Positions 24,586 through 60,304 of a stretch of 64,000 nucleotides of DNA are shown here, piece after piece. Made by a program: the position numbers and the translations under genes. How positions within the stretch are numbered: position 1 is the first letter of the stretch; each line of letters starts with the position of its first letter. The notes below the pieces were generated by a model. It was not told where the DNA came from and did no database searches. It was given only the letters and a program-made list of their open reading frames with translations. This DNA comes from Escherichia phage ime. The DNA lies in sequence record MN850576.1; one strand, given 5' to 3'.

Positions 24586-24614
24586 TTGACTAATAGTATT
24601 AGATAATCTATAAT
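24586..24614 (+). promoter_or_regulatory. sigma70-like promoter (TTGACT-N17-TATAAT)
   Basis: -35 TTGACT 24586-24591, 17-nt spacer, -10 TATAAT 24609-24614. Confidence 0.6.
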
Positions 24615-24642
24615 AATGGCTCACTTTGTTGGTGAGCCAGAA

Positions 24643-41524: not shown

Positions 41525-41553
41525 GTTGACACAACGCTTCAGATTTAGTATCA
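41525..41553 (+). promoter_or_regulatory. sigma70-like promoter (TTGACA-N17-TATCAT)
   Basis: -35 41525-41530, -10 41548-41553; directly upstream of HPF-like gene. Confidence 0.55.
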
Positions 41554-41601
41554 TTGTTTTCAAAGAGGGTTTGGTTCCCTCTTCTTTAAAAGGAACACGT
41601 T

Positions 41602-49861: not shown

Positions 49862-49886
49862 AAAAAGAAAGGGGCCTTTAAGCCCC
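49862..49886 (-). terminator. rho-independent terminator (minus strand)
   Basis: On minus strand GGGGC...GCCCC hairpin followed by TTTCTTTTTG; downstream of gene 49907-50326. Confidence 0.55.
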
Positions 49887-49906
49887 TTGATAATTCAGTT
49901 AAGAAA

Positions 49907-51089: not shown

Positions 51090-51362
51090 TTACTTGCGGC
51101 GGCAGAATTCAAGCGTTTTTAATTGATAATCTTCCTCAGCCTGGAGTACTACCGCCTCGATCATTTCGTTGGCATTGTTAAAGCCATAACCTTTAGCGAA
51201 CTCATCCGCGCCACCTTCGTGATCATGTTCTGCGTTCATCGCTTCCACAAAATGGAATTCCAAATTGTTGAGGTAGGGGCTTGATGTGCCGTCTTCTTTT
51301 TCGATGAGATCCCAAATAGCATTAAAACGTGATTCGACTTCTTGATTAATCCAGCTTGACAT
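51090..51362 (-). CDS. hypothetical acidic protein
   Basis: 90-aa ORF; SD GGAGAGAGG; GC hairpin in leader. Confidence 0.45.
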   Translation of the reverse strand: MSSWINQEVESRFNAIWDLIEKEDGTSSPYLNNLEFHFVEAMNAEHDHEGGADEFAKGYGFNNANEMIEAVVLQAEEDYQLKTLEFCRRK

Positions 51363-51573
51363 AGTGTTTTCCTCTCTCCTGGTTATTGTGTGGGCACTTT
51401 TGCCCCTTCAAGATAAATGTTACCCCACCCCATGGCAGATGTCAACGGTTTTTATAGTTCTTATATGACAGGCAGGCCCGGTGATTGTCTCCACCCGTCG
51501 CCAGGTGCCTGCCGTGAAACAAGTATAACAAAAAACAGGACCATTGCAAGCCCTGTTTTGTAGTTTATAAGGA

Positions 51574-51914: not shown

Positions 51915-52199
51915 TTAACGGTTTACGTAAGCTTTACCGTTTACGGTGATGGGCAGGTCTTCCAGGTCTGGATCTTCCTTAAGGTCGCGAGCAAGCTCAC
52001 CGCACCGGATACCCTCGAATCCGTAGTACTCTGTTGTGCCGTCATTAAAAGTTTTAGCGGCAAGGCATAAGCGATAAGTAACCCCGATTTGATTGACGGC
52101 ATGGATATCCGTTAGATTAACCTCTTTTGCCAGCTCTTTAGCCATTACAGGCGCATTAAGTCCAACAACCAGGGCAACTACTGCGATCATCTTTTTCAT
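51915..52199 (-). CDS. secreted/periplasmic protein (signal peptide)
   Basis: N-terminal MKKMIAVVALVVGLNAPVMA signal-like sequence. Confidence 0.45.
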   Translation of the reverse strand: MKKMIAVVALVVGLNAPVMAKELAKEVNLTDIHAVNQIGVTYRLCLAAKTFNDGTTEYYGFEGIRCGELARDLKEDPDLEDLPITVNGKAYVNR

Positions 52200-52290
52200 T
52201 GTGTCTAGCCTCTTTCTGCTACGTTTAAGGCGGCGGTAACCGCCTGTTTATGATTTATTGGTTAATTTTCAGGTATCGCTATAAATTAAA

Positions 52291-52515
52291 CTATGCTGTA
52301 CGCTCAACTATAACAACGGTTTGAGGGATCTCACCTTCTACCACTATCAAGGCCTTTTTCTGCGTGATGGATATCTTTACCCGTTGCAGCGTGGCGGTGA
52401 AGTCTTTCATTTCGTCACGTGGTGTTTTAGTGCAATGCCAGATCTCAGGCTTACCTATTTGCAAGCCGCGTAAAAATTCTGTTTTACCTGTCTTATTCGT
52501 GATCATTTGATTCAC
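52291..52515 (-). CDS. hypothetical protein
   Basis: 74-aa ORF. Confidence 0.35.
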   Translation of the reverse strand: MNQMITNKTGKTEFLRGLQIGKPEIWHCTKTPRDEMKDFTATLQRVKISITQKKALIVVEGEIPQTVVIVERTA

Positions 52516-52516
52516 C

Positions 52517-52621
52517 TTAACCGATACCGTGGGAAGATAGGATCATGTTAGCCATAGTTGCAACCACTCCAACCGATAATGCCAGGCCAACTACTACAAC
52601 CGTGAAAATTTTCTCTAACAT
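52517..52621 (-). CDS. hydrophobic micro-peptide, 34 aa
   Basis: ORF track 52517-52720 trimmed to Met at 52619-52621 preceded by GAGGGTAG; leader TTAATGAGGGTA shared with next small ORF. Confidence 0.3.
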   Translation of the reverse strand: MLEKIFTVVVVGLALSVGVVATMANMILSSHGIG

Positions 52622-52704
52622 GATTCTACCCTCATTAATGGGCGTTGCCTTATTGCCCCGCCCTACGAAATACAGTCTATCAAGTAATAAACTATTGTCA
52701 AGAT

Positions 52705-52842
52705 TTATTTTACTTCCCAAACGGAAAATTCACTACCTGGCGGAATCATCTTTTTAATCTTGTTTGCTGCTGCTACCAGATCCACGGCTTGTACTGTAAT
52801 AATATAACCAATTGTCGAGGCTGTTGCGTTGAAAGTTTTCAT
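52705..52842 (-). CDS. small protein, 45 aa
   Basis: Met at 52840-52842 preceded by GAGGGTAA and palindrome GGCGGGAA-N3-TTCCCGCG; below ORF-track cut-off. Confidence 0.3.
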   Translation of the reverse strand: MKTFNATASTIGYIITVQAVDLVAAANKIKKMIPPGSEFSVWEVK

Positions 52843-52860
52843 TAAATTACCCTCATTAAT

Positions 52861-52878
52861 GGCGGGAAGTATTCCCGC
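52861..52878 (-). promoter_or_regulatory. leader palindrome GGCGGGAA-N3-TTCCCGC (copy 1 of 3)
   Basis: Inverted repeat about 20 nt upstream of a minus-strand start codon; see copies at 56939 and 58828. Confidence 0.45.
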
Positions 52879-52926
52879 GCTATGTAGTACACTTTACCAG
52901 ATTGTTGACTGTTGTCAAACTATTTT

Positions 52927-53100
52927 AACGATAATCATCATATGCTTTATTGACCTGGCGAATATAACATTCAAAAGCTAAATCAATAGATTTATATTCA
53001 CGGATATATTCACCATAGGAAACCACATACATTTCTATAGCTTCCTCATATGCGAGGAGAATAGAATCTAAGCCTACGATCTCAGTCTTTGCAATAATAG
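52927..53100 (-). CDS. small protein, 57 aa
   Basis: Minus-strand ORF MAIIAKTEIVGLDS... with SD AAGAGGA; GC hairpin in leader; below ORF-track cut-off. Confidence 0.3.
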
Positions 53101-53179
53101 CCATGATTTTTATCCTCTTTGTGGTTGGTGGGGCTTGTTGCCCCCTTTGATTTATATTCTACAGTCTTATAAGGTCATG

Positions 53180-53389
53180 TCAACTATTTTCAAAAAATTT
53201 TTCTGCTGTAATATTTTTCCCGGTAGGGTTCGCTACTTTCAAAATTTTATCATGCACTGGACGCCCAAAAGAATAATCGCCGTCAGGCTGTACTATTACA
53301 GCCGCATAGGGTACGCCTTTTTCGTTTTTGCTGACAAAATAGATCACGTTGCCATTAATAGCCTCGGCGCGTTTAATTTGTTCCATCAT
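53180..53389 (-). CDS. hypothetical protein
   Basis: 69-aa ORF; SD AGAGAGG. Confidence 0.4.
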   Translation of the reverse strand: MMEQIKRAEAINGNVIYFVSKNEKGVPYAAVIVQPDGDYSFGRPVHDKILKVANPTGKNITAEKFFENS

Positions 53390-53445
53390 GATGATTTGCC
53401 TCTCTTTATTTTCATAATTGGGGGGCCTTTTCGGCCCCGCCAGGT

Positions 53446-53730
53446 TTATTTATTGATAGCGTGCAGCGGGAAAGGTACGCCAGGTTGATAGATAACTTTT
53501 ACAACCTCATCAGAGCAAAAGAAATTACAAAATTCACCCTGGTAAGCCTCATCCTCTTTTAATTCTTCATCAACATACTGGAAAAAGTAGTCAATGCTTG
53601 GATAATCCTGACCGGGATTATATTCAACCATGGTTAATAACAATTCTTGATCATTCCGTATGATATGCATACCAGCTTTTAAGTATTTGGCTTCCATTTC
53701 TACTACATCGCCAACGGTAACAATAGCCAT
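53446..53730 (-). CDS. hypothetical acidic protein
   Basis: 94-aa ORF. Confidence 0.4.
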   Translation of the reverse strand: MAIVTVGDVVEMEAKYLKAGMHIIRNDQELLLTMVEYNPGQDYPSIDYFFQYVDEELKEDEAYQGEFCNFFCSDEVVKVIYQPGVPFPLHAINK

Positions 53731-53870
53731 GGTTTTAACTCCTATCTATCCGGTTAATGATTGGAGGCCTCACCGCCCCCCCCCGACACCCTTTATTATC
53801 CATATTGTAGGACTTGATGCAAGTACTTCTTTAAAAATTTTTTAAGCGCCTTGGGGGCCGCTGTAACGCC

Positions 53871-53902
53871 AAAATAATAAAGGCTATGCAACCGCATAGC
53901 CT
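53871..53902 (-). terminator. rho-independent terminator (minus strand)
   Basis: On minus strand AAGGCTATGC-GGTT-GCATAGCCTT followed by TATTATTTT. Confidence 0.5.
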
Positions 53903-53939
53903 TTATGTGATTATATCGCTGCAGGCCCTGCCAGGGGCC

Positions 53940-54290
53940 TTATTTTGCATTCTTTCCTATATTGCCGCTACGGTACCAGCGTTTACGGTGAAAATGGTAA
54001 TAATCACCATCGGCATTAAACATCAGATGATTTTCAATAACCAGCTTACGAAGGTGGGCCGGATCTTGTTCCATTCTTGCCAGATTCTGGCGGCTGTTAC
54101 GTAAGCGGATAAATTCTATATTCAGGCCGTTGATTGCAGCATGGATGTCAAAGTAACCACCTTTGAGACGTTCACGCATGGCGTTAAGCTCAACACAATA
54201 TACAGATTTCTCACAAATCAAGGTATTAGCCAGGGCGCGGACCTGGGCAAGGGGGTTAAGCTCATTAAGGTAATATAGTTTTACTTTCAT
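53940..54290 (-). CDS. hypothetical protein
   Basis: 116-aa ORF. Confidence 0.4.
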   Translation of the reverse strand: MKVKLYYLNELNPLAQVRALANTLICEKSVYCVELNAMRERLKGGYFDIHAAINGLNIEFIRLRNSRQNLARMEQDPAHLRKLVIENHLMFNADGDYYHFHRKRWYRSGNIGKNAK

Positions 54291-54307
54291 AAAATCACCT
54301 GCTGAAA

Positions 54308-54628
54308 TTAGTTTGAGAAAACATCGTTCACAATAGCGATCACAATGCCGCCCACCTTGTCACGGTCAACAATGCACAAATCACCATAAATCATGTGGTA
54401 GTCTGGATGATCTTTGACGGAATAGTCGATAAGTGTTTTCTTGTCATCCAGCTTACTAACTTCCATTCTCATAACGATATGAGAATCATCAAAGGCATTA
54501 TTCCGAAAAGTCATAACCTGACCGCCAGGGCACCCGGTGATTTCCACCTCCACGCCGTCTACGATCTGACCATCAAAGAAATAAAGATTATTAGCCTGGA
54601 TAAACATGATCATTACTCCTTTTTGCAC
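54308..54628 (-). CDS. hypothetical protein
   Basis: 106-aa ORF. Confidence 0.4.
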   Translation of the reverse strand: MQKGVMIMFIQANNLYFFDGQIVDGVEVEITGCPGGQVMTFRNNAFDDSHIVMRMEVSKLDDKKTLIDYSVKDHPDYHMIYGDLCIVDRDKVGGIVIAIVNDVFSN

Positions 54629-54651
54629 TGATTATTTTAACAGGGTTTAAA

Positions 54652-54696
54652 TTTACTTTATTGATGGCCCTGGAGTCAAGGCCATCTAAAAATAAA
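54652..54696. repeat. 45-bp exact repeat containing a hairpin (copy 1)
   Basis: TTTACTTTATTGATGGCCCTGGAGTCAAGGCCATCTAAAAATAAA; identical to 58367-58411; lies 2 nt beyond a minus-strand stop codon. Confidence 0.8.
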
Positions 54697-54698
54697 TT

Positions 54699-54899
54699 TT
54701 ACAGGCCTACAATCTCTTTAATTCGTTTTACTGCTGCCTCAGCGCCTTGAGGGTAAAAATTATGGTAACCAATCACGCGAGTGATACTAATCGCCGTTTG
54801 ATGATCTTCATAATCACCTTTAAAGATTTCTTGACCGTCAATCAGCACGGCAATTTTTTCTTCTTTTTTGAAGTTAATAACGCGGATATTGTTGCTCAT
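54699..54899 (-). CDS. hypothetical protein
   Basis: 66-aa ORF. Confidence 0.35.
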   Translation of the reverse strand: MSNNIRVINFKKEEKIAVLIDGQEIFKGDYEDHQTAISITRVIGYHNFYPQGAEAAVKRIKEIVGL

Positions 54900-55379
54900 T
54901 TTGTTTCTCCTTTTGGAACTTTGTCTATGCGGTGGGGAGTGTCTCCCCGTTGATTGTTATTATCCATATTCTGGATCGGATTGCAACACTCAGGGAGAAA
55001 AAAATTTGAAAAGTTAGGCCCCCATGATCGGGGGCCGTTCTTAGTTACTTACAGCGATAAAGTACATCCCTACGCCTAGCAATATTTCAAGGGCGATAAT
55101 CTCAAGCCATACCATAACGCGGCGCACCTTATCGGTGCATGGCTTATCCTTGGTTGTCATCGTCTCCCCCTTTCCTTCTGGTAGTAGTGACGCGATCTAC
55201 AATGGCCCCCAGGAGTCCTATCACGACACACACCACAAGAAAAATTATCTCCGCTGTTGTTCGATCCATTGTTATAAAATTCCTCAAGATCAGGCCTGAA
55301 AATAAAGCGTTCGTTATTGAATCCGTCACGCCAGGCGGCTGGCTTCAAATCTCCACTAAAGGGATTAATTAACGTGGCA

Positions 55380-55784
55380 TTATTTAAACGGTTGGCCCAC
55401 ATATTTTCTATTCCTCTCAAATAGGCGATCCGCCTCAGTTAAACAAATCTCATGGGCGTGATCTCTGGTTTTAGCTTCATCGAAAACCTGTTGTGCAAGG
55501 CTGCAACGTAGGGAGACTGGAAGATCACTATAATAGGCGTTGACAAACGTTTGAGCGTCGTACAGGTCTGAAAATACTTTACCCTTTCTATTATTCCCCT
55601 TGTCAACAATTGCAAGGATAACCAATACAATAGTTGCAACCACCCCCAGGAAAATAGATATAATAAACCATAAAAAGGCGGATCTTCCCATCTTGCCAGC
55701 GATCCAGGCGTTAAACAAGGCAACCAATACAGCCAAAATAATAAATTCCATTCTATGTACCTCTTTTACAGTTCTGATTAACAA
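55380..55784 (-). CDS. membrane protein (two TM helices)
   Basis: FIILAVLVALFNAWIAG and FLWFIISIFLGVVATIVLVILAIV hydrophobic segments. Confidence 0.4.
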   Translation of the reverse strand: MLIRTVKEVHRMEFIILAVLVALFNAWIAGKMGRSAFLWFIISIFLGVVATIVLVILAIVDKGNNRKGKVFSDLYDAQTFVNAYYSDLPVSLRCSLAQQVFDEAKTRDHAHEICLTEADRLFERNRKYVGQPFK

Positions 55785-55815
55785 TAAGGCGGCAAATATG
55801 CCGCCTGCTACCTGA

Positions 55816-56196
55816 TTAAAAATTATCGCCGTAAATCTTTCCGCTTTCTACCCATACCACCACGCGAGGCATACTATCCCACACGTCTTGTTTTAGATTG
55901 AGCGCGTGCAATTCTTCGGTGGTGCTCATACCGGGCACGGGCTGATTGTATACTGCAAAACGACCGCCTGCATAATCATAGGCCAGGGTTAAATCACACT
56001 GGATCATCTTTTTGATCATGGCATTAAGCATGGCGTTAGCCGCATATTGATCACGTTTTAAAGGCAACTCTTTGATTAGTTTGCGATAGTTTTCGATATG
56101 GTCGCACACTGTTTCACGAGGAAGATCTTTCATATCTTCACGGAATGTAACCAGGTTAAACATAACGGTGTCAATAGCCTTGGTAGTGTTTTTCAT
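55816..56196 (-). CDS. hypothetical protein
   Basis: 126-aa ORF; minus-strand promoter TTGCAA-N16-TATATT, GC leader hairpin and SD AGAGGA upstream. Confidence 0.45.
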   Translation of the reverse strand: MKNTTKAIDTVMFNLVTFREDMKDLPRETVCDHIENYRKLIKELPLKRDQYAANAMLNAMIKKMIQCDLTLAYDYAGGRFAVYNQPVPGMSTTEELHALNLKQDVWDSMPRVVVWVESGKIYGDNF

Positions 56197-56286
56197 GATG
56201 TTATCCTCTTTGTTTTGTGTTGGGGCAAACGTCTTGCCCCCTTGAGTTTTAATATAGCAGGTTTTTAGGTTATTGCAACACTTTAT

Positions 56287-56910
56287 TTATGAAAAAGTCA
56301 TCTCACCATATTCATCGACATCAAACCGCCAATCATTGGCCTCGATAAGGCCGATCAGGTTTTCTGCGGTGAACTGTTCTAGATAGGCCTCCTCCAGGTC
56401 TACGTAAACCTTGCGGGATAGCTCCCGTACCGTCTCGGTGATCAGTTCTTCCAGGTCTTCCACTTTGTTTTCTTGTTTGGCGGTCAGATCTAGCCAAGTG
56501 GTATCAATGTACCCGCTTACAGTGTTTTCATGGCTGTAATGGCTGTACTTGTCGCGTTCAACACTGGCTGATAACTCGCCATCGTGCATTGTGCCGAACA
56601 AGTGACGAATTGATCGGAACTTGGTCAGGGCCTTTACTTTACGCAAAAATTTTTCTAAATCCACGTTTTCAGCACTGATTGACGCGCCGTCACCCTGGCA
56701 CCAAAAGCCTGACCAATGTACTTCGGTATCTTCAAGGCCATACTCTGGAAAAACATATTCTTTATAGTATTCAATTACACTTTCTGCAAAAAAGTTATCC
56801 CCGCTGTGTTCTTCTCTTTCGCGGACCATTTCAACGGCTTTTTCTTTTTGTTCGTCGGTCAGCACGTCGAAAGATAAATTGTAACCTGCGGTAATGTTAA
56901 CGGTGGTCAT
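56287..56910 (-). CDS. hypothetical strongly acidic protein
   Basis: 207-aa ORF rich in Glu/Asp; conserved-looking HWSGFWCQGDGAS motif of unknown family; own promoter TTGACA-N16-TATACT. Confidence 0.45.
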   Translation of the reverse strand: MTTVNITAGYNLSFDVLTDEQKEKAVEMVREREEHSGDNFFAESVIEYYKEYVFPEYGLEDTEVHWSGFWCQGDGASISAENVDLEKFLRKVKALTKFRSIRHLFGTMHDGELSASVERDKYSHYSHENTVSGYIDTTWLDLTAKQENKVEDLEELITETVRELSRKVYVDLEEAYLEQFTAENLIGLIEANDWRFDVDEYGEMTFS

Positions 56911-56938
56911 GATATTTTCTCCTATTTTCTTTGTTAGT

Positions 56939-56957
56939 GGCGGGAAGTTTTCCCGCC
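56939..56957 (-). promoter_or_regulatory. leader palindrome GGCGGGAA-GTT-TTCCCGCC (copy 2 of 3)
   Basis: Perfect 8-bp arms; between predicted promoter and SD of gene 56287-56910. Confidence 0.5.
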
Positions 56958-56984
56958 TGTGTGTTTAAGTATACTTATTGAGGC

Positions 56985-57245
56985 TTACTTGTCAACACTA
57001 TTTTTTAAATTATTGTGGCGCAAAATGTTTAAAATCTCCTCAACGTCATCAACACGGCGGCAATTTTTAAACGCTACCAATTGCCCCATGATTTTAATCA
57101 CTGGGCGGCCTTGCCAGTGCCCCTGAAGAAAGCGCGCCCTGACTTTATCGGTGGAACTATCACGCCACCAAATAGCCTTGTTGTTGCAGTAGTAAAAATT
57201 ATTCAGGATAACATCAACTTTATCAAAATTTTTTAATTTACGCAT
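56985..57245 (-). CDS. hypothetical protein
   Basis: 86-aa ORF. Confidence 0.4.
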   Translation of the reverse strand: MRKLKNFDKVDVILNNFYYCNNKAIWWRDSSTDKVRARFLQGHWQGRPVIKIMGQLVAFKNCRRVDDVEEILNILRHNNLKNSVDK

Positions 57246-57427
57246 GGCGTTTACTCCTTTCTCTCTTTGATGTGGTTAGTATAGCTAACCTGTTGACGAT
57301 GTCAATGATATTTTTAACGCCATGAAACGGCCCTGGGCGATGTTTTCAGGTTAAGGGGGGCGATTGCATAGGTGGGGGCCTTTTTGGCGCTTACAGGGCC
57401 AACCAGGGGCGCTATTCGTAGGATAGA

Positions 57428-57455
57428 AATAAAAAGCCCCGCACAATGGCGGGGC
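57428..57455 (-). terminator. rho-independent terminator (minus strand)
   Basis: On minus strand GCCCCGC-CATTGT-GCGGGGC followed by TTTTTATTT. Confidence 0.55.
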
Positions 57456-57463
57456 GTTGGTTG

Positions 57464-57685
57464 TTATTTGTCTTTATGGCGGTATCGTTCTGCCTGTCGT
57501 TCACGTTCCAAAAGTAGGCCGGGCAATTTACGATCATAATGATTACGCCAGATCTTCCCAAACCTTTTTGGCTTATTCAGTTTATTGTTACGCTGGCGGC
57601 GTTCTGGCAGCTCTTCGGAATCATGAGGGCGCTTTACAATTTTCTCGAAATTAATTTTCATATATTCCCCCCTTGCTAACTTCAA
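57464..57685 (-). CDS. hypothetical basic protein
   Basis: 73-aa ORF. Confidence 0.35.
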   Translation of the reverse strand: MKLARGEYMKINFEKIVKRPHDSEELPERRQRNNKLNKPKRFGKIWRNHYDRKLPGLLLERERQAERYRHKDK

Positions 57686-58004
57686 TATTGGCCTGAATAG
57701 CCCGGATACGGCGCTTTATAACTTCCTGATCTGTGTGGTCGTATCCCCAAAAGTCTACAATTTTTGCGCCCCCCGCCTTCAGGCGGTATAGTGTTTCCTG
57801 CATTTTGTAAGCCGGGATCGGTCGCGGTGTTACTTGGTCACCTTCTTTATTTTTATACTTTATAATATAATCTTCGTTATCGTTGAATGCCCAAAATGGA
57901 TATTCTGCAAGGGCGGTACTTCCTCTTTCCTTTTTATCCTGGATCTTATTTACAATTAAAGCCGTAGCAATAGCGCCAATAATAAAACTTGCCCCGCTGA
58001 TCAT
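57651..58004 (-). CDS. membrane-anchored protein
   Basis: N-terminal ISGASFIIGAIATALIV hydrophobic segment. Confidence 0.4.
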   Translation of the reverse strand: MISGASFIIGAIATALIVNKIQDKKERGSTALAEYPFWAFNDNEDYIIKYKNKEGDQVTPRPIPAYKMQETLYRLKAGGAKIVDFWGYDHTDQEVIKRRIRAIQANIEVSKGGIYEN

Positions 58005-58077
58005 GTACTTTCTCCTTTCATGGTGTTAATAAATTATCTTTATAGATGGCCCTGCAACCAGGACCACCGAAAAATAA

Positions 58078-58323
58078 CTATTTCACAATGCCTACAAAAC
58101 AGATCCCGCCTTCACCTATATAAGCAATATCGGTCACTTTATAACTTGTCAAGATCTGCTTATTTAGTTCATTAATAAAATCGGTCATTGCGTTGGTGTA
58201 GTTGTCTTCCGTGTCTAAGGCATAATCCCAGGTGTACACCTTTTTACGTCCGAAGCCTTTTACCATGATACGGGCGCTTTTGGTGTTGGTAGGGGCATAA
58301 TATTTGGTGATTAGTGCTGCCAT
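58078..58323 (-). CDS. hypothetical protein
   Basis: 81-aa ORF. Confidence 0.4.
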   Translation of the reverse strand: MAALITKYYAPTNTKSARIMVKGFGRKKVYTWDYALDTEDNYTNAMTDFINELNKQILTSYKVTDIAYIGEGGICFVGIVK

Positions 58324-58366
58324 GGTTTTAACTCCTATGCATTAGTTCAGTGTTAACAGTATAAAG

Positions 58367-58411
58367 TTTACTTTATTGATGGCCCTGGAGTCAAGGCCAT
58401 CTAAAAATAAA
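58367..58411. repeat. 45-bp exact repeat containing a hairpin (copy 2)
   Basis: Identical to 54652-54696; lies 1 nt beyond stop codon of gene 58413-58808. Confidence 0.8.
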
Positions 58412-58412
58412 C

Positions 58413-58808
58413 TCAATAAGTTTTTAGTACTTTCCCGTCCAATCTGTCAAGCTGGATCTCGATAGCTGCAGAAAACCTATTGTAAACCACATCGCCCAGG
58501 GAGTCCAGCCAATCTATGACGTTATATACCTGCTCTTTATTCTTGCAAGTCCGGATCCGTTTCATTACGTAAGACGGATCAATATTAGCGCTCTCGTTGT
58601 TGTGGTCCTGCGCCTGGCCTGCTGCGCTAGTTATAGATTTTACAACCACCTGAAAGGGCTTTAAGGTGCCTTTTGCGTTCATCTCACGCGCTTTTGCGGC
58701 GCGGTTGTTATATGTTACACAACGGCGGCAAATGTTGACCAAATGCATATCAATAATTTTTTCATCGTTTGCCAGTTCGTTCATGATGCGGCGTACGTTC
58801 TTATTCAT
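58413..58808 (-). CDS. hypothetical protein
   Basis: 131-aa ORF; SD AAGGA; leader palindrome upstream. Confidence 0.45.
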   Translation of the reverse strand: MNKNVRRIMNELANDEKIIDMHLVNICRRCVTYNNRAAKAREMNAKGTLKPFQVVVKSITSAAGQAQDHNNESANIDPSYVMKRIRTCKNKEQVYNVIDWLDSLGDVVYNRFSAAIEIQLDRLDGKVLKTY

Positions 58809-58827
58809 GATCTTTTTCCTTTGTGCT

Positions 58828-58846
58828 GGCGGGAAACATTCCCGCC
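58828..58846 (-). promoter_or_regulatory. leader palindrome GGCGGGAA-ACA-TTCCCGCC (copy 3 of 3)
   Basis: Perfect 8-bp arms 20 nt upstream of start codon at 58806-58808. Confidence 0.5.
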
Positions 58847-58890
58847 TTTTGTGTCTAGTTTACTTAAATTTTGCAGCGTGTCAATGATTT

Positions 58891-59289
58891 TTATTCGTGG
58901 GCGCATGTTACAATGTGTTTTTTATAGCCCAGGTGGTCAGCAAGTGCCGACAAAAACTCTTCTTCGTAGATCCAGCCGTCGGCAGTGATCCCCATAGCAT
59001 TTAATGCGCTCTCAAGTGCTGCGTTAGCTTTATCGTAACCGTGACCGCTCGCCTTGCCGCCAGTATAACCGTACTTATTGTTCTTGTTGTCGTGAATCCA
59101 AAACACGCAGTAGTGAGTGTTCCCGCTGGCGGCGGCATAATACCGGATCTCAGCTACTTCGTGCAAATTATTGTCATCGTCCAGGCCCACCAGATTATAA
59201 GCCTTGTAAAATCCACGATCACGGCGGCAGTTCTTGACATCAGAAAAAGAAAAGTCCGCATTATCAAAATTAAAGGTGGTGGTTTTCAT
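58891..59289 (-). CDS. hypothetical protein
   Basis: 132-aa ORF. Confidence 0.4.
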   Translation of the reverse strand: MKTTTFNFDNADFSFSDVKNCRRDRGFYKAYNLVGLDDDNNLHEVAEIRYYAAASGNTHYCVFWIHDNKNNKYGYTGGKASGHGYDKANAALESALNAMGITADGWIYEEEFLSALADHLGYKKHIVTCAHE

Positions 59290-59353
59290 GATTTTATCCT
59301 CTTAGTGTCTTTTGTGCTTTTAGTGTATTTGGTGTCGGACTATATGTCAATAC

Positions 59354-59629
59354 TTATTTTTTATTAAACCAGTGGTTGATCTGTCCTTTTGTCAGGGCGC
59401 AACGATTAAGCTGTTGCCGGGTATAGCTCTGACCGCGACGGAATTTATAAAGGCCTTGCCCGTTGTTGATGGTTACGTCCACCTGGCAAACCATTTGATC
59501 GGTGACCACCTGGCGAGTGTTGCGACGTACTTTGATCCCGTATGCGTTCATAAATTTATCCTCTTTACTGGTTAGTGCGGTGTTGTTCACCTTGTAGGGT
59601 AATAATACCATGATTAACCTTGTTGTCAA
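59354..59629 (-). CDS. hypothetical protein
   Basis: 91-aa ORF. Confidence 0.4.
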   Translation of the reverse strand: MTTRLIMVLLPYKVNNTALTSKEDKFMNAYGIKVRRNTRQVVTDQMVCQVDVTINNGQGLYKFRRGQSYTRQQLNRCALTKGQINHWFNKK

Positions 59630-60304
59630 CGATTATTTTAAATTATTTTTATGATAGAATCCACCTGCCGCCCCCGCCAGGTTAACCACCATTTTTTCGT
59701 ACTCTTCTTTATGTTCCCGCGCTTCTGTATCATTAATCACTACATTTCCCAGGTGAGTAGCATTACCTTTCATTTTTGTACCTCCTCTTCAATTGTTTAC
59801 CCTACAGCATGGGCCTACCAGGTTTGCAAGATTTCACCCTCTCCCACCTGGTCAGTTAGGTCCTGCCAGGCTGGCCCCGCCAGGTTGCAACGGTTAGCGC
59901 ATCAGGTTAGAAAAATTTTTTGAAAAGGTGTTGACAGCGGCCCCGCCAGGGGGCACAATATACCTATCGAAAGGACGGCAGGCACCGGTGACGGTGGAGA
60001 CAACCACCGGGGATGGGCGCTGCATAAAATGAGAACGGTTATCATTATCATTTAAAAATTTATGCAAAAAATCCTTGCCTTCTTTGTCCTGTGTGATACT
60101 ATAATAACAAGCCGGGGCAACAGGGGCCGGGAGACAATCACCGGGCCTGCCCGTTATTCTGCAAACGAGAATGATTATCATTCAAAATTCTAAATGAGAA
60201 CTCCTCGCATTTAATAAATTTAATTAGCATGCTAATTACCCTCCGTAACAATTTCCTATAAAACAGTATCCCATAAAATATTCCCATATAGAAATTTTAA
60301 AAAT

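Follow-up and report, generated by a model that had tools for sequence, protein, structure and literature searches.

Candidate 5'-terminal protective stem-loops on early promoter cassettes of an rV5-like coliphage

The DNA analysed here is a stretch of 64,000 nucleotides (hereafter the window) from Escherichia phage ime (sequence record MN850576.1), which belongs to Vequintavirus, the rV5-like myoviruses of E. coli. A minus-strand block of small open reading frames (ORFs) within the window carries three near-identical palindromes, each located between a promoter and a small gene. We propose, with a rough probability of 0.55, that each palindrome forms a stem-loop at the 5' terminus of an mRNA, where it would hinder attack by RppH and RNase E, and that the promoter cassettes bearing these stem-loops double as recombination junctions. 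An earlier note on this DNA had left a choice between an operator for a palindrome-binding regulator and a leader stem-loop that controls mRNA stability or translation, and the stability stem-loop is now favored from among these options, with the operator disfavored. This preference is based on the presence of five or more stems of unrelated sequence at one common offset from their promoters, on loops that are free to vary, on insertions and deletions that are paired between the two arms, and on the placement of the hairpin about 2-5 nucleotides from the predicted 5' end of the RNA.

The whole window was searched with the pattern GGCGGGAANNNTTCCCGCC, allowing up to three mismatches, and dinucleotide shuffles served as the background. 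The arrangement GGCGGGAA-N3-TTCCCGCC occurs at three sites only, all read on the minus strand, compared to a chance expectation of 0.05 +/- 0.22 matches, and three matches were obtained in none of 100 shuffles. Site 1 (52861-52879; CGCGGGAA-tac-TTCCCGCC) carries one mismatch, a C.C opposition at the outermost pair, which leaves a perfect 7-bp stem at 52862-52878 that starts 10-12 nucleotides past the -10 hexamer. The copies at site 2 (56939-56957; GGCGGGAA-aac-TTCCCGCC) and site 3 (58828-58846; GGCGGGAA-tgt-TTCCCGCC) are exact, each with an 8-bp stem that begins 10 nucleotides past the -10 hexamer.

At all three sites the palindrome does indeed sit where the earlier note had placed it, between a sigma70-like promoter and the Shine-Dalgarno (SD) sequence of a minus-strand gene. 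A promoter scan yields TTGACA-16-TAAAGT with a TG-extended -10 element for site 1 (52891-52918), TTGACA-16-TATACT for site 2 (56968-56995), and TTGACA-16-TAAACT for site 3 (58857-58884), all on the minus strand. The corresponding minus-strand genes encode proteins of 45 amino acids (52705-52842; SD GAGGG at 52850-52854; PHROG 29854), 207 amino acids (56287-56910; SD AGGAG at 56919-56923; PHROG 5162), and 131 amino acids (58413-58808; PHROG 13245), each assigned to a family of unknown function. An A/C-rich spacer and the SD lie between the palindrome and the ATG. The distance of about 20 nucleotides to the start codon that had been given for all three applies to sites 1 and 3 (18 and 19 nucleotides), but not to site 2 (28 nucleotides).

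The three palindromes are instances of a more general cassette, in which an AT-rich upstream region is followed by a consensus sigma70 promoter, a 10-nucleotide A-rich spacer that would contain the transcription start, a GC-rich hairpin, an A/C-rich leader with an SD, and a small ORF. Four further minus-strand cassettes in the window carry other stems at the equivalent position, as the earlier note had recognized for a GGGGC family, and their hairpins start 10-11 nucleotides past the -10 hexamer. The first (53130-53183; -35 hexamer beginning at 53183) combines TTGACA-16-TAGAAT with the hairpin GGGGC-aacaa-GCCCC (53130-53144) and precedes a 59-amino-acid gene (52925-53104). The second (51392-51445; -35 from 51445) has TTGACA-17-TAACAT, the hairpin GGGCA-aaag-TGCCC (51392-51405), and a 90-amino-acid gene (51090-51362). 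The third (52640-52701; -35 from 52701) has TTGACA-16-TAGACT, the hairpin GGGCG(GGGCAATAAGGCAA)CGCCC (52640-52663), and a 34-amino-acid gene (52517-52621), and it has the leader sequence CCATTAATGAGGGTA in common with site 1. The fourth (59579-59629; -35 from 59629) joins TTGACA-16-TATTAT to a weak stem, GGTG-aacaa-CACC (59579-59591), ahead of a 65-amino-acid gene (59354-59550).

When these seven cassettes are aligned, the parts they have in common are the A-rich upstream region, the -35 and -10 elements, an AG|G at the start of the hairpin, the SD, and the ATG. TTGACA and TAnnnT are invariant, and the spacers between elements are unrelated. The idea that the three palindromes are recent segmental duplicates was therefore rejected, as the three cassettes show no alignment apart from the -35 and -10 elements, the hairpin, and the SD.

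This arrangement extends well beyond the window. Strong promoters on the gene strand were collected from the window (49-61 kb) and from eight related regions (six from Vequintavirus phages, one from the Phapecoctavirus ESCO37, and one from the Justusliebigvirus VEcB), and the best simple hairpin within the next 35 nucleotides was scored at a cutoff of -5 kcal/mol, with shuffled downstream sequences as the control. Among 93 distinct cassettes, 49 carry a hairpin of -5 kcal/mol or better. The hairpin starts 8-14 nucleotides past the -10 hexamer in 43 of the 93, as opposed to 1.1% of shuffles, and the most common offset is 10 nucleotides (19 cassettes), followed by 11 (10 cassettes).

The arrangement is denser still in phi92-like and phAPEC8-like phages. 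ESCO37 and VEcB have roughly 15-20 such cassettes each, and almost every small early gene has one. Their module consists of TTGACA-16/17-TAnnnT, a spacer with the consensus gtatcacata, and a hairpin that opens with GGGCGG or GGGGC; the stems include GGGCGGCA-atgg-TGCCGCTC, GGGCGGGAA(A)-tgg/tag-(T)TTCCCGCTC, GCGGGAA-tag-TTCCCGC, and GGGGCG-acaag-CGCCCC. A single 96-nucleotide VEcB cassette matches 132 phage records, at several places in a genome. An IMG/VR search made via the downstream proteins returned only 2-8 loci. The promoter-hairpin class is restricted to the block of small ORFs, as judged from the rest of the window and from positions 11-56 kb of phage EdH4, including replication genes on the same strand.

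The stem sequence itself is not special to these phages. The exact 19-mer is present in 115 IMG/VR stretches, mostly as an ordinary terminator stem in unrelated phages; a T-run follows the hairpin in 103 of the 232 orientations scored for these stretches, which amounts to the majority of the matches. A promoter lies about 10 nucleotides upstream in only six scored orientations, at least four of which are on rV5-like or phAPEC8-like contigs. A phage-specific sequence motif was rejected on these grounds. The stem is therefore best viewed as a generic strong hairpin, and it is the placement, rather than the sequence, that needs to be explained.

Structure predictions are consistent with a hairpin that stands alone near the start of the leader. 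For sites 2 and 3, the predicted leader fold is a single dominant hairpin (-14.6 kcal/mol; z -3.4 for site 2 and -3.9 for site 3); the 8-bp hairpin by itself has about -13 kcal/mol. Everything past the hairpin is unpaired in these folds, including the SD and the AUG, so control of translation through occlusion of the ribosome binding site is not supported. The 57-nucleotide leader of site 1 has a minimum free energy of -14.4 kcal/mol, a value that counts a second weak helix in addition to the 7-bp stem, and the leader of the GGGCG cassette folds at -14.9 kcal/mol (z -3.3).

Transcription by E. coli RNA polymerase usually begins with a purine 6-8 nucleotides past the -10 hexamer, and the cassette spacers have an A at positions 6, 8, and 10. 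With start sites predicted in this manner, about 2-5 unpaired nucleotides would precede the stem, and 5-7 at site 1. A hairpin close to the triphosphorylated 5' end is a classical brake on 5'-end-dependent decay in E. coli, and the T7 gene 10 leader provides a phage precedent for such a 5' stem-loop. An added 5' hairpin stabilizes bla mRNA, and a 5' hairpin impedes conversion by RppH (PMC3997798, citing Emory 1992 and Deana 2008).

A mechanism can be envisioned from these elements. Host RNA polymerase would initiate about 6-8 nucleotides past the -10 element, such that the mRNA would open with roughly 2-5 free nucleotides and then the hairpin. This 5'-terminal structure would slow both RppH conversion and the 5'-end-dependent entry of RNase E, and the early message would live longer while its ribosome binding site is left open. 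In read-through transcripts, the hairpin could also serve as a barrier to 3' exonucleases for the upstream cistron. The promoter-hairpin cassettes also provide homology patches for the insertion, deletion, and swapping of genes. The placement, the pairing potential, the enrichment, the pattern of conservation, and the recombination junctions are read directly from the sequences; the start site, the folding in vivo, and the gain in mRNA stability are inferred.

Comparison of orthologues in annotated GenBank phage records reveals which features of the palindrome are free to change. The loops in this family include aac, cac, gtt, tgt, aca, tag, and tgg; site 2 orthologues carry aac, cac, or gtt, and at site 3 the loop is either tgt or aca. 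Within unchanged arms, gtt is the reverse complement of aac, and aca that of tgt (A51.2 L131 7668, Aya L134 8191, IMG/VR L067), and thus the loop has been flipped, which in these sequences points to palindrome-mediated DNA events.

Changes in length tend to leave the pairing intact. In phage Aya, a 1-nucleotide deletion converts an 8-bp stem with a 3-nucleotide loop into a 7-bp stem with a 4-nucleotide loop, and the GGGGC family has the variants GGGG-caag-CCCC and GGG-gcaa-CCC, in which the loop goes from 5 to 4 nucleotides. Stephanstirmvirinae palindromes exhibit paired insertions that change AA/TT to AAA/TTT and GGG/CCC to GGGG/CCCC, as well as a change of the outer pair from G-C to A-T. The spacing of the half-sites shifts by 2 bp through the paired insertions and by 1 bp in Aya. 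Pairing that is kept while half-site spacing changes fits a hairpin better than a dimeric operator. Eroded copies of the palindrome retain the inner stem only. On the sense strand, G.U pairs outnumber A.C pairs 15:5, but the copies are related and a single recurrent end, ...CCGCTC, supplies most of the G.U pairs; the excess therefore provides weak support for pairing at the RNA level.

The second part of the proposal, that the cassettes also act as homology patches, follows from their repetition between many small ORFs, and junctions with relatives can be read directly from overlapping BLAST alignment blocks. The window lacks about 576 bp that are present in EdH4 (L001 6940-7514), and the junction is a 46-nucleotide promoter repeat at 58365-58410. 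The segment that EdH4 has in addition holds two small genes (EdH4_00023 and EdH4_00024) along with a fourth, degenerate palindrome, ACGGGAA-aac-TTCCCAG, after TTGACA-16-TATAAT. Phages naswa and A51.2 carry an extra cassette, with a junction overlap of 56 nucleotides (52871-52926) that covers the site 1 promoter together with the hairpin's left arm. Site 2 of phage V18 is a chimera whose left half resembles another cassette and whose right half resembles site 2, which places the crossover within the hairpin. The site 1 hairpin of A51.2 is joined to the next gene via the shared leader CCATTAATGAGGGTA. As a separate observation, an N run in KP869112 (O157 typing phage 14; 6247-6520) begins inside the site 2 hairpin, where the assembly probably broke at the stem-loop.

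Several results weigh against a protective function at the RNA 5' end. Within this block, four strong promoters (-35 elements starting at 57305, 59350, 62163, and 62617) have short leaders and no hairpin, and thus the leader hairpin is dispensable for early expression. Not every cassette has a convincing fold: the GGTG/CACC stem is marginal (-4.4 kcal/mol; z -1.1), and the GGGGC and GGGCA leaders are no more stable than shuffled sequences (z -0.6 and -1.0). Protection by a 5' hairpin tolerates few unpaired 5' nucleotides (about 0-4), and the modeled start at site 1 may put that copy at or past this limit.

The pattern of conservation is also not fully what would be expected. The inner 7 bp of the GGCGGGAA family are identical in all 22 distinct copies from Vequintavirinae and Stephanstirmvirinae, and a formal count over these copies finds covariation in the two outer pairs alone, without reaching significance. 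An invariant inner stem could reflect the concerted evolution of a repeated module, but recognition of a specific sequence would also fit. Furthermore, the 5' edge of the hairpin is no more tightly positioned than its center (standard deviations of 1.8 and 1.9 nucleotides), and therefore this test gives no support for anchoring to the RNA 5' end. Finally, our literature search found no transcript-start, RNA-seq, half-life, or structure-probing study for rV5, phi92, or phAPEC8 phages.

An unlikely alternative, albeit the one that fares best, is that the hairpin acts as an attenuator or insulator that damps read-through from upstream, as proposed for the PeSL cassettes of T4-type phages, or serves only as a 3'-end stabilizer of the upstream message. 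The hairpins are intergenic, being located right after the upstream stop codon and the promoter, and several of them are labeled as putative terminators in the EdH4 and Alma records. The PeSL stem-loops of RB49/phi1 cut lacZ expression in the manner of a strong terminator (PMC2839356). On the plus strand, partial T-runs follow the hairpins at sites 2 and 3, although plus-strand transcription appears to stop near 49.87 kb, at a terminator (49869-49888) that looks bidirectional and borders the plus-strand genes.

On the gene strand, the sequences immediately after the hairpins (ACTAACAAAG, AGCACAAAGG, and ATTAATGAGG) are A/C-rich and have no U-run, while hairpins with T-runs that resemble terminators exist as separate elements on the minus strand of the block (57436-57455, 55017-55036, 55787-55806, 53878-53905, 51532-51559, and the one at 49869-49888). 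An intrinsic terminator on the gene strand was rejected for this reason. Moreover, a terminator past the promoter would also affect the cassette's own transcript, and a fixed offset of 10 nucleotides from the -10 hexamer is needless for termination.

Two other kinds of promoter-associated stem-loops were observed in the window. The 46-nucleotide repeat TTATTTTTAGATGGCCTTGACTCCAGGGCCATCAATAAAGTAAAYT is present on the minus strand at 58365-58410 and 54650-54695, with a related copy at 58045-58068, and it represents a second promoter/stem-loop class in which a 10-bp stem (GATGGCCTTG/CAGGGCCATC; -16.3 kcal/mol) surrounds the -35 element TTGACT of a TTGACT-18-TAAAYT promoter. Also, two plus-strand promoters outside the early block (24586-24640 and 41526-41590) have hairpins near the start. 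The hairpin at 24617-24639 begins 2 nucleotides past the -10 and looks like a terminator when read on the opposite strand, and that at 41562-41584 (AAGAGGG...CCCTCTT) begins 8 nucleotides past the -10 hexamer.

It is rather unlikely that the palindrome is a DNA operator, at which a dimeric repressor of phage or host origin would bind (approximately +4 to +22) to shut off or time this subset of promoters, with the other hairpin families being operators for other regulators or unrelated elements. The palindrome repeats perfectly in inverted orientation, its two 8-bp half-sites have centers 11 bp apart, and it overlaps the initially transcribed region. The inner 7 bp are fixed across the copies of two subfamilies while loops and flanks vary, which is a pattern typical of sequence-specific recognition, and the GGCGGGAA-type stem is found on only a subset of promoters.

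However, five or more unrelated stem sequences share this offset, so several regulators would be needed, and the paired insertions and the Aya deletion alter half-site spacing with pairing intact. Eroded copies hold on to the inner stem alone, and in the 109 kb examined there are no copies outside the promoter-leader context. No candidate regulator was identified, and the neighboring small proteins gave no Pfam match. In other phage metagenome sequences this 19-mer is a plain terminator stem, as would suit a generic strong hairpin.

A more speculative possibility, which we regard as comparably doubtful, is that the promoter, the 10-nucleotide spacer, and the G-rich hairpin together constitute a "self" mark on the early transcripts of rV5-, phi92-, and phAPEC8-like phages. 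The invariant CGGGAA/TTCCCG and GGGCGGCA/TGCCGC stems would then be bound by a phage or host factor, or would permit these transcripts specifically to evade phage-induced RNA decay or host shut-off. If true, early mRNAs of the phage would be told apart from host mRNAs by the 5' end, and the modular exchange of anti-host genes would be driven by this element as well.

There is still less reason to believe that the cassette is mainly a recombination device or a passenger, kept for the exchange of small ORFs by homologous recombination or template switching, with a hairpin of little regulatory consequence. The junctions described above (the 46- and 56-nucleotide overlaps, the V18 crossover, and the fused leader of A51.2) would be expected in this case, the loop inversions (aac/gtt and tgt/aca) suggest DNA events driven by the palindrome, and the PeSL cassettes offer a precedent. 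However, the start of unrelated stems at a shared 10-11 nucleotides past the -10 hexamer calls for more than homology, and so does the upkeep of pairing through paired indels. The usable homology is also short, since the spacers between functional elements are not conserved. Exchange through the cassettes complements the 5'-terminal stem-loop proposal and is not exclusive of it.

Recognition of the hairpin by a protein as an RNA tag, either as a boxB-like site for N-type antitermination or as a mark that distinguishes phage from host mRNA, seems very improbable: the hairpin is promoter-proximal in the leader, the GGCGGGAA-family stem is invariant, and some members have a 5-bp GC stem and an A-rich pentaloop (GGGGC-aacaa-GCCCC and GGTG-aacaa-CACC, which we take to resemble boxB), but the 3-nucleotide loops differ by site and orthologue and can be inverted, such that loop-specific recognition is unlikely, antitermination has little work to do where almost all small genes have promoters of their own, no Rfam match was obtained, and no candidate RNA-binding protein was identified. 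Two other ideas were considered only briefly. RNase III substrates are far longer than the stem in question, and an RNase III site was dropped given that an 8-bp stem is too short. A hairpin promoter of the N4 type, as used by a virion RNA polymerase, was noted as an idea only, as a sigma70 consensus lies directly upstream, and no search for a virion polymerase was made.

All PHROG families of the downstream proteins are of unknown function, and neither these proteins nor their small neighbors match a Pfam family. A search of Rfam at E values up to 1 found no matching family, only one chance match to a snoRNA. The region is 98% identical to EdH4, and 247 phage records match; in the EdH4 annotation, the site 3 hairpin and the GGGGC hairpin are each called a putative transcriptional terminator. 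The rV5 genome paper reports 33 sigma70-like promoters and 20 terminators, and leader hairpins did not turn up in a term search of its text (PMC3606486); our literature search found no description of these leader hairpins for rV5-, phi92-, or phAPEC8-like phages.

About 20 records named "Campylobacter phage" (host C. jejuni; 137-150 kb) are 91-95% identical to window positions 52000-60000, and these look mislabeled or contaminated. The segment at about 55830-56860 has 67-75% nucleotide identity to unrelated phages, namely the jumbo coliphages G17, UB, and WPEC3 (350-384 kb) and a record named Enterococcus phage heks (39.7 kb). The part shared among these matches is a 126-amino-acid ORF (55816-56196), annotated as a membrane protein in heks, and this gene appears to be widely exchanged among phages.

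If the hairpins are indeed 5'-end protectors, then roughly half of the early "host-takeover" genes of these large coliphages would carry a standard stabilizing leader. Such leaders would account for the strong expression of tiny ORFs in the first minutes of infection, and they would constitute compact, portable promoter-leader parts for synthetic biology. The terminator labels given to these hairpins in databases would need to be corrected. In addition, the cassettes flag the points at which early genes are swapped between phages and can aid in reading mosaic early regions, and rV5-like large coliphages are common in therapy collections. Regardless, no new field is opened by these findings, which should not surprise a specialist, since both the 5' hairpin principle and the shuffling of promoter/stem-loop cassettes are already known.

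The closest parallel is provided by the PeSLs, which are cassettes of a sigma70 promoter and a GC stem-loop in the hyperplastic regions of T4-type phages, where they permit modular shuffling with crossovers in the stem-loop; they have been described in RB49/phi1, PST/T4, and nt-1/KVP40 (Arbiol et al. 2010, PMC2839356; Comeau et al. 2014, PMC4122927). Both systems combine a near-consensus sigma70 early promoter and an AT-rich upstream region with a stem-loop rich in GC, which is followed by an SD and the start codon. In both, the cassettes recur among small ORFs without assigned function, within a variable region, and they are found at junctions of insertion, deletion, and replacement, including crossovers within the stem-loop.

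PeSLs have been described only in T4-like phages, whereas the cassettes examined here belong to Vequintavirinae and Stephanstirmvirinae. PeSL stem-loops also vary in position, being located upstream of the -35, overlapping the -35 or the -10, between the two boxes, or just before the start site, and they have been read as terminators. In contrast, the main class described here is fixed at 10-11 nucleotides past the -10, inside the predicted transcript, and lacks a U-run. The minority class in the window, in which the 46-nucleotide repeat places the -35 within a 10-bp stem-loop, corresponds to the PeSL subclass that overlaps the -35.

Similar comparisons can be made with individual RNA elements. 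The same 19-mer GGCGGGAA-N3-TTCCCGCC followed by a T-run is the terminator stem in most IMG/VR matches, but in the window no U-run follows the hairpins on the transcribed strand, and the hairpins come after the next gene's promoter rather than before it. The nut/boxB elements of lambda differ as well, in that they have a conserved purine-rich pentaloop rather than the variable, invertible 3-nucleotide loop seen here, and no Rfam match links the two. The ompA 5' untranslated region, papA (Emory, Bouvet and Belasco 1992), and the T7 gene 10 leader share with the present cassettes a stable hairpin near the 5' end (a predicted one in our case), an unstructured leader, and a strong SD. Their function is independent of stem sequence, in line with the several stem families found here. 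Each of these is a single, tested element, as opposed to a candidate module repeated on about half of the early promoters across entire phage subfamilies. The element described here is a lineage-specific, fixed-position variant of two known ideas, namely the 5'-terminal stabilizing hairpin and the PeSL-type cassette.

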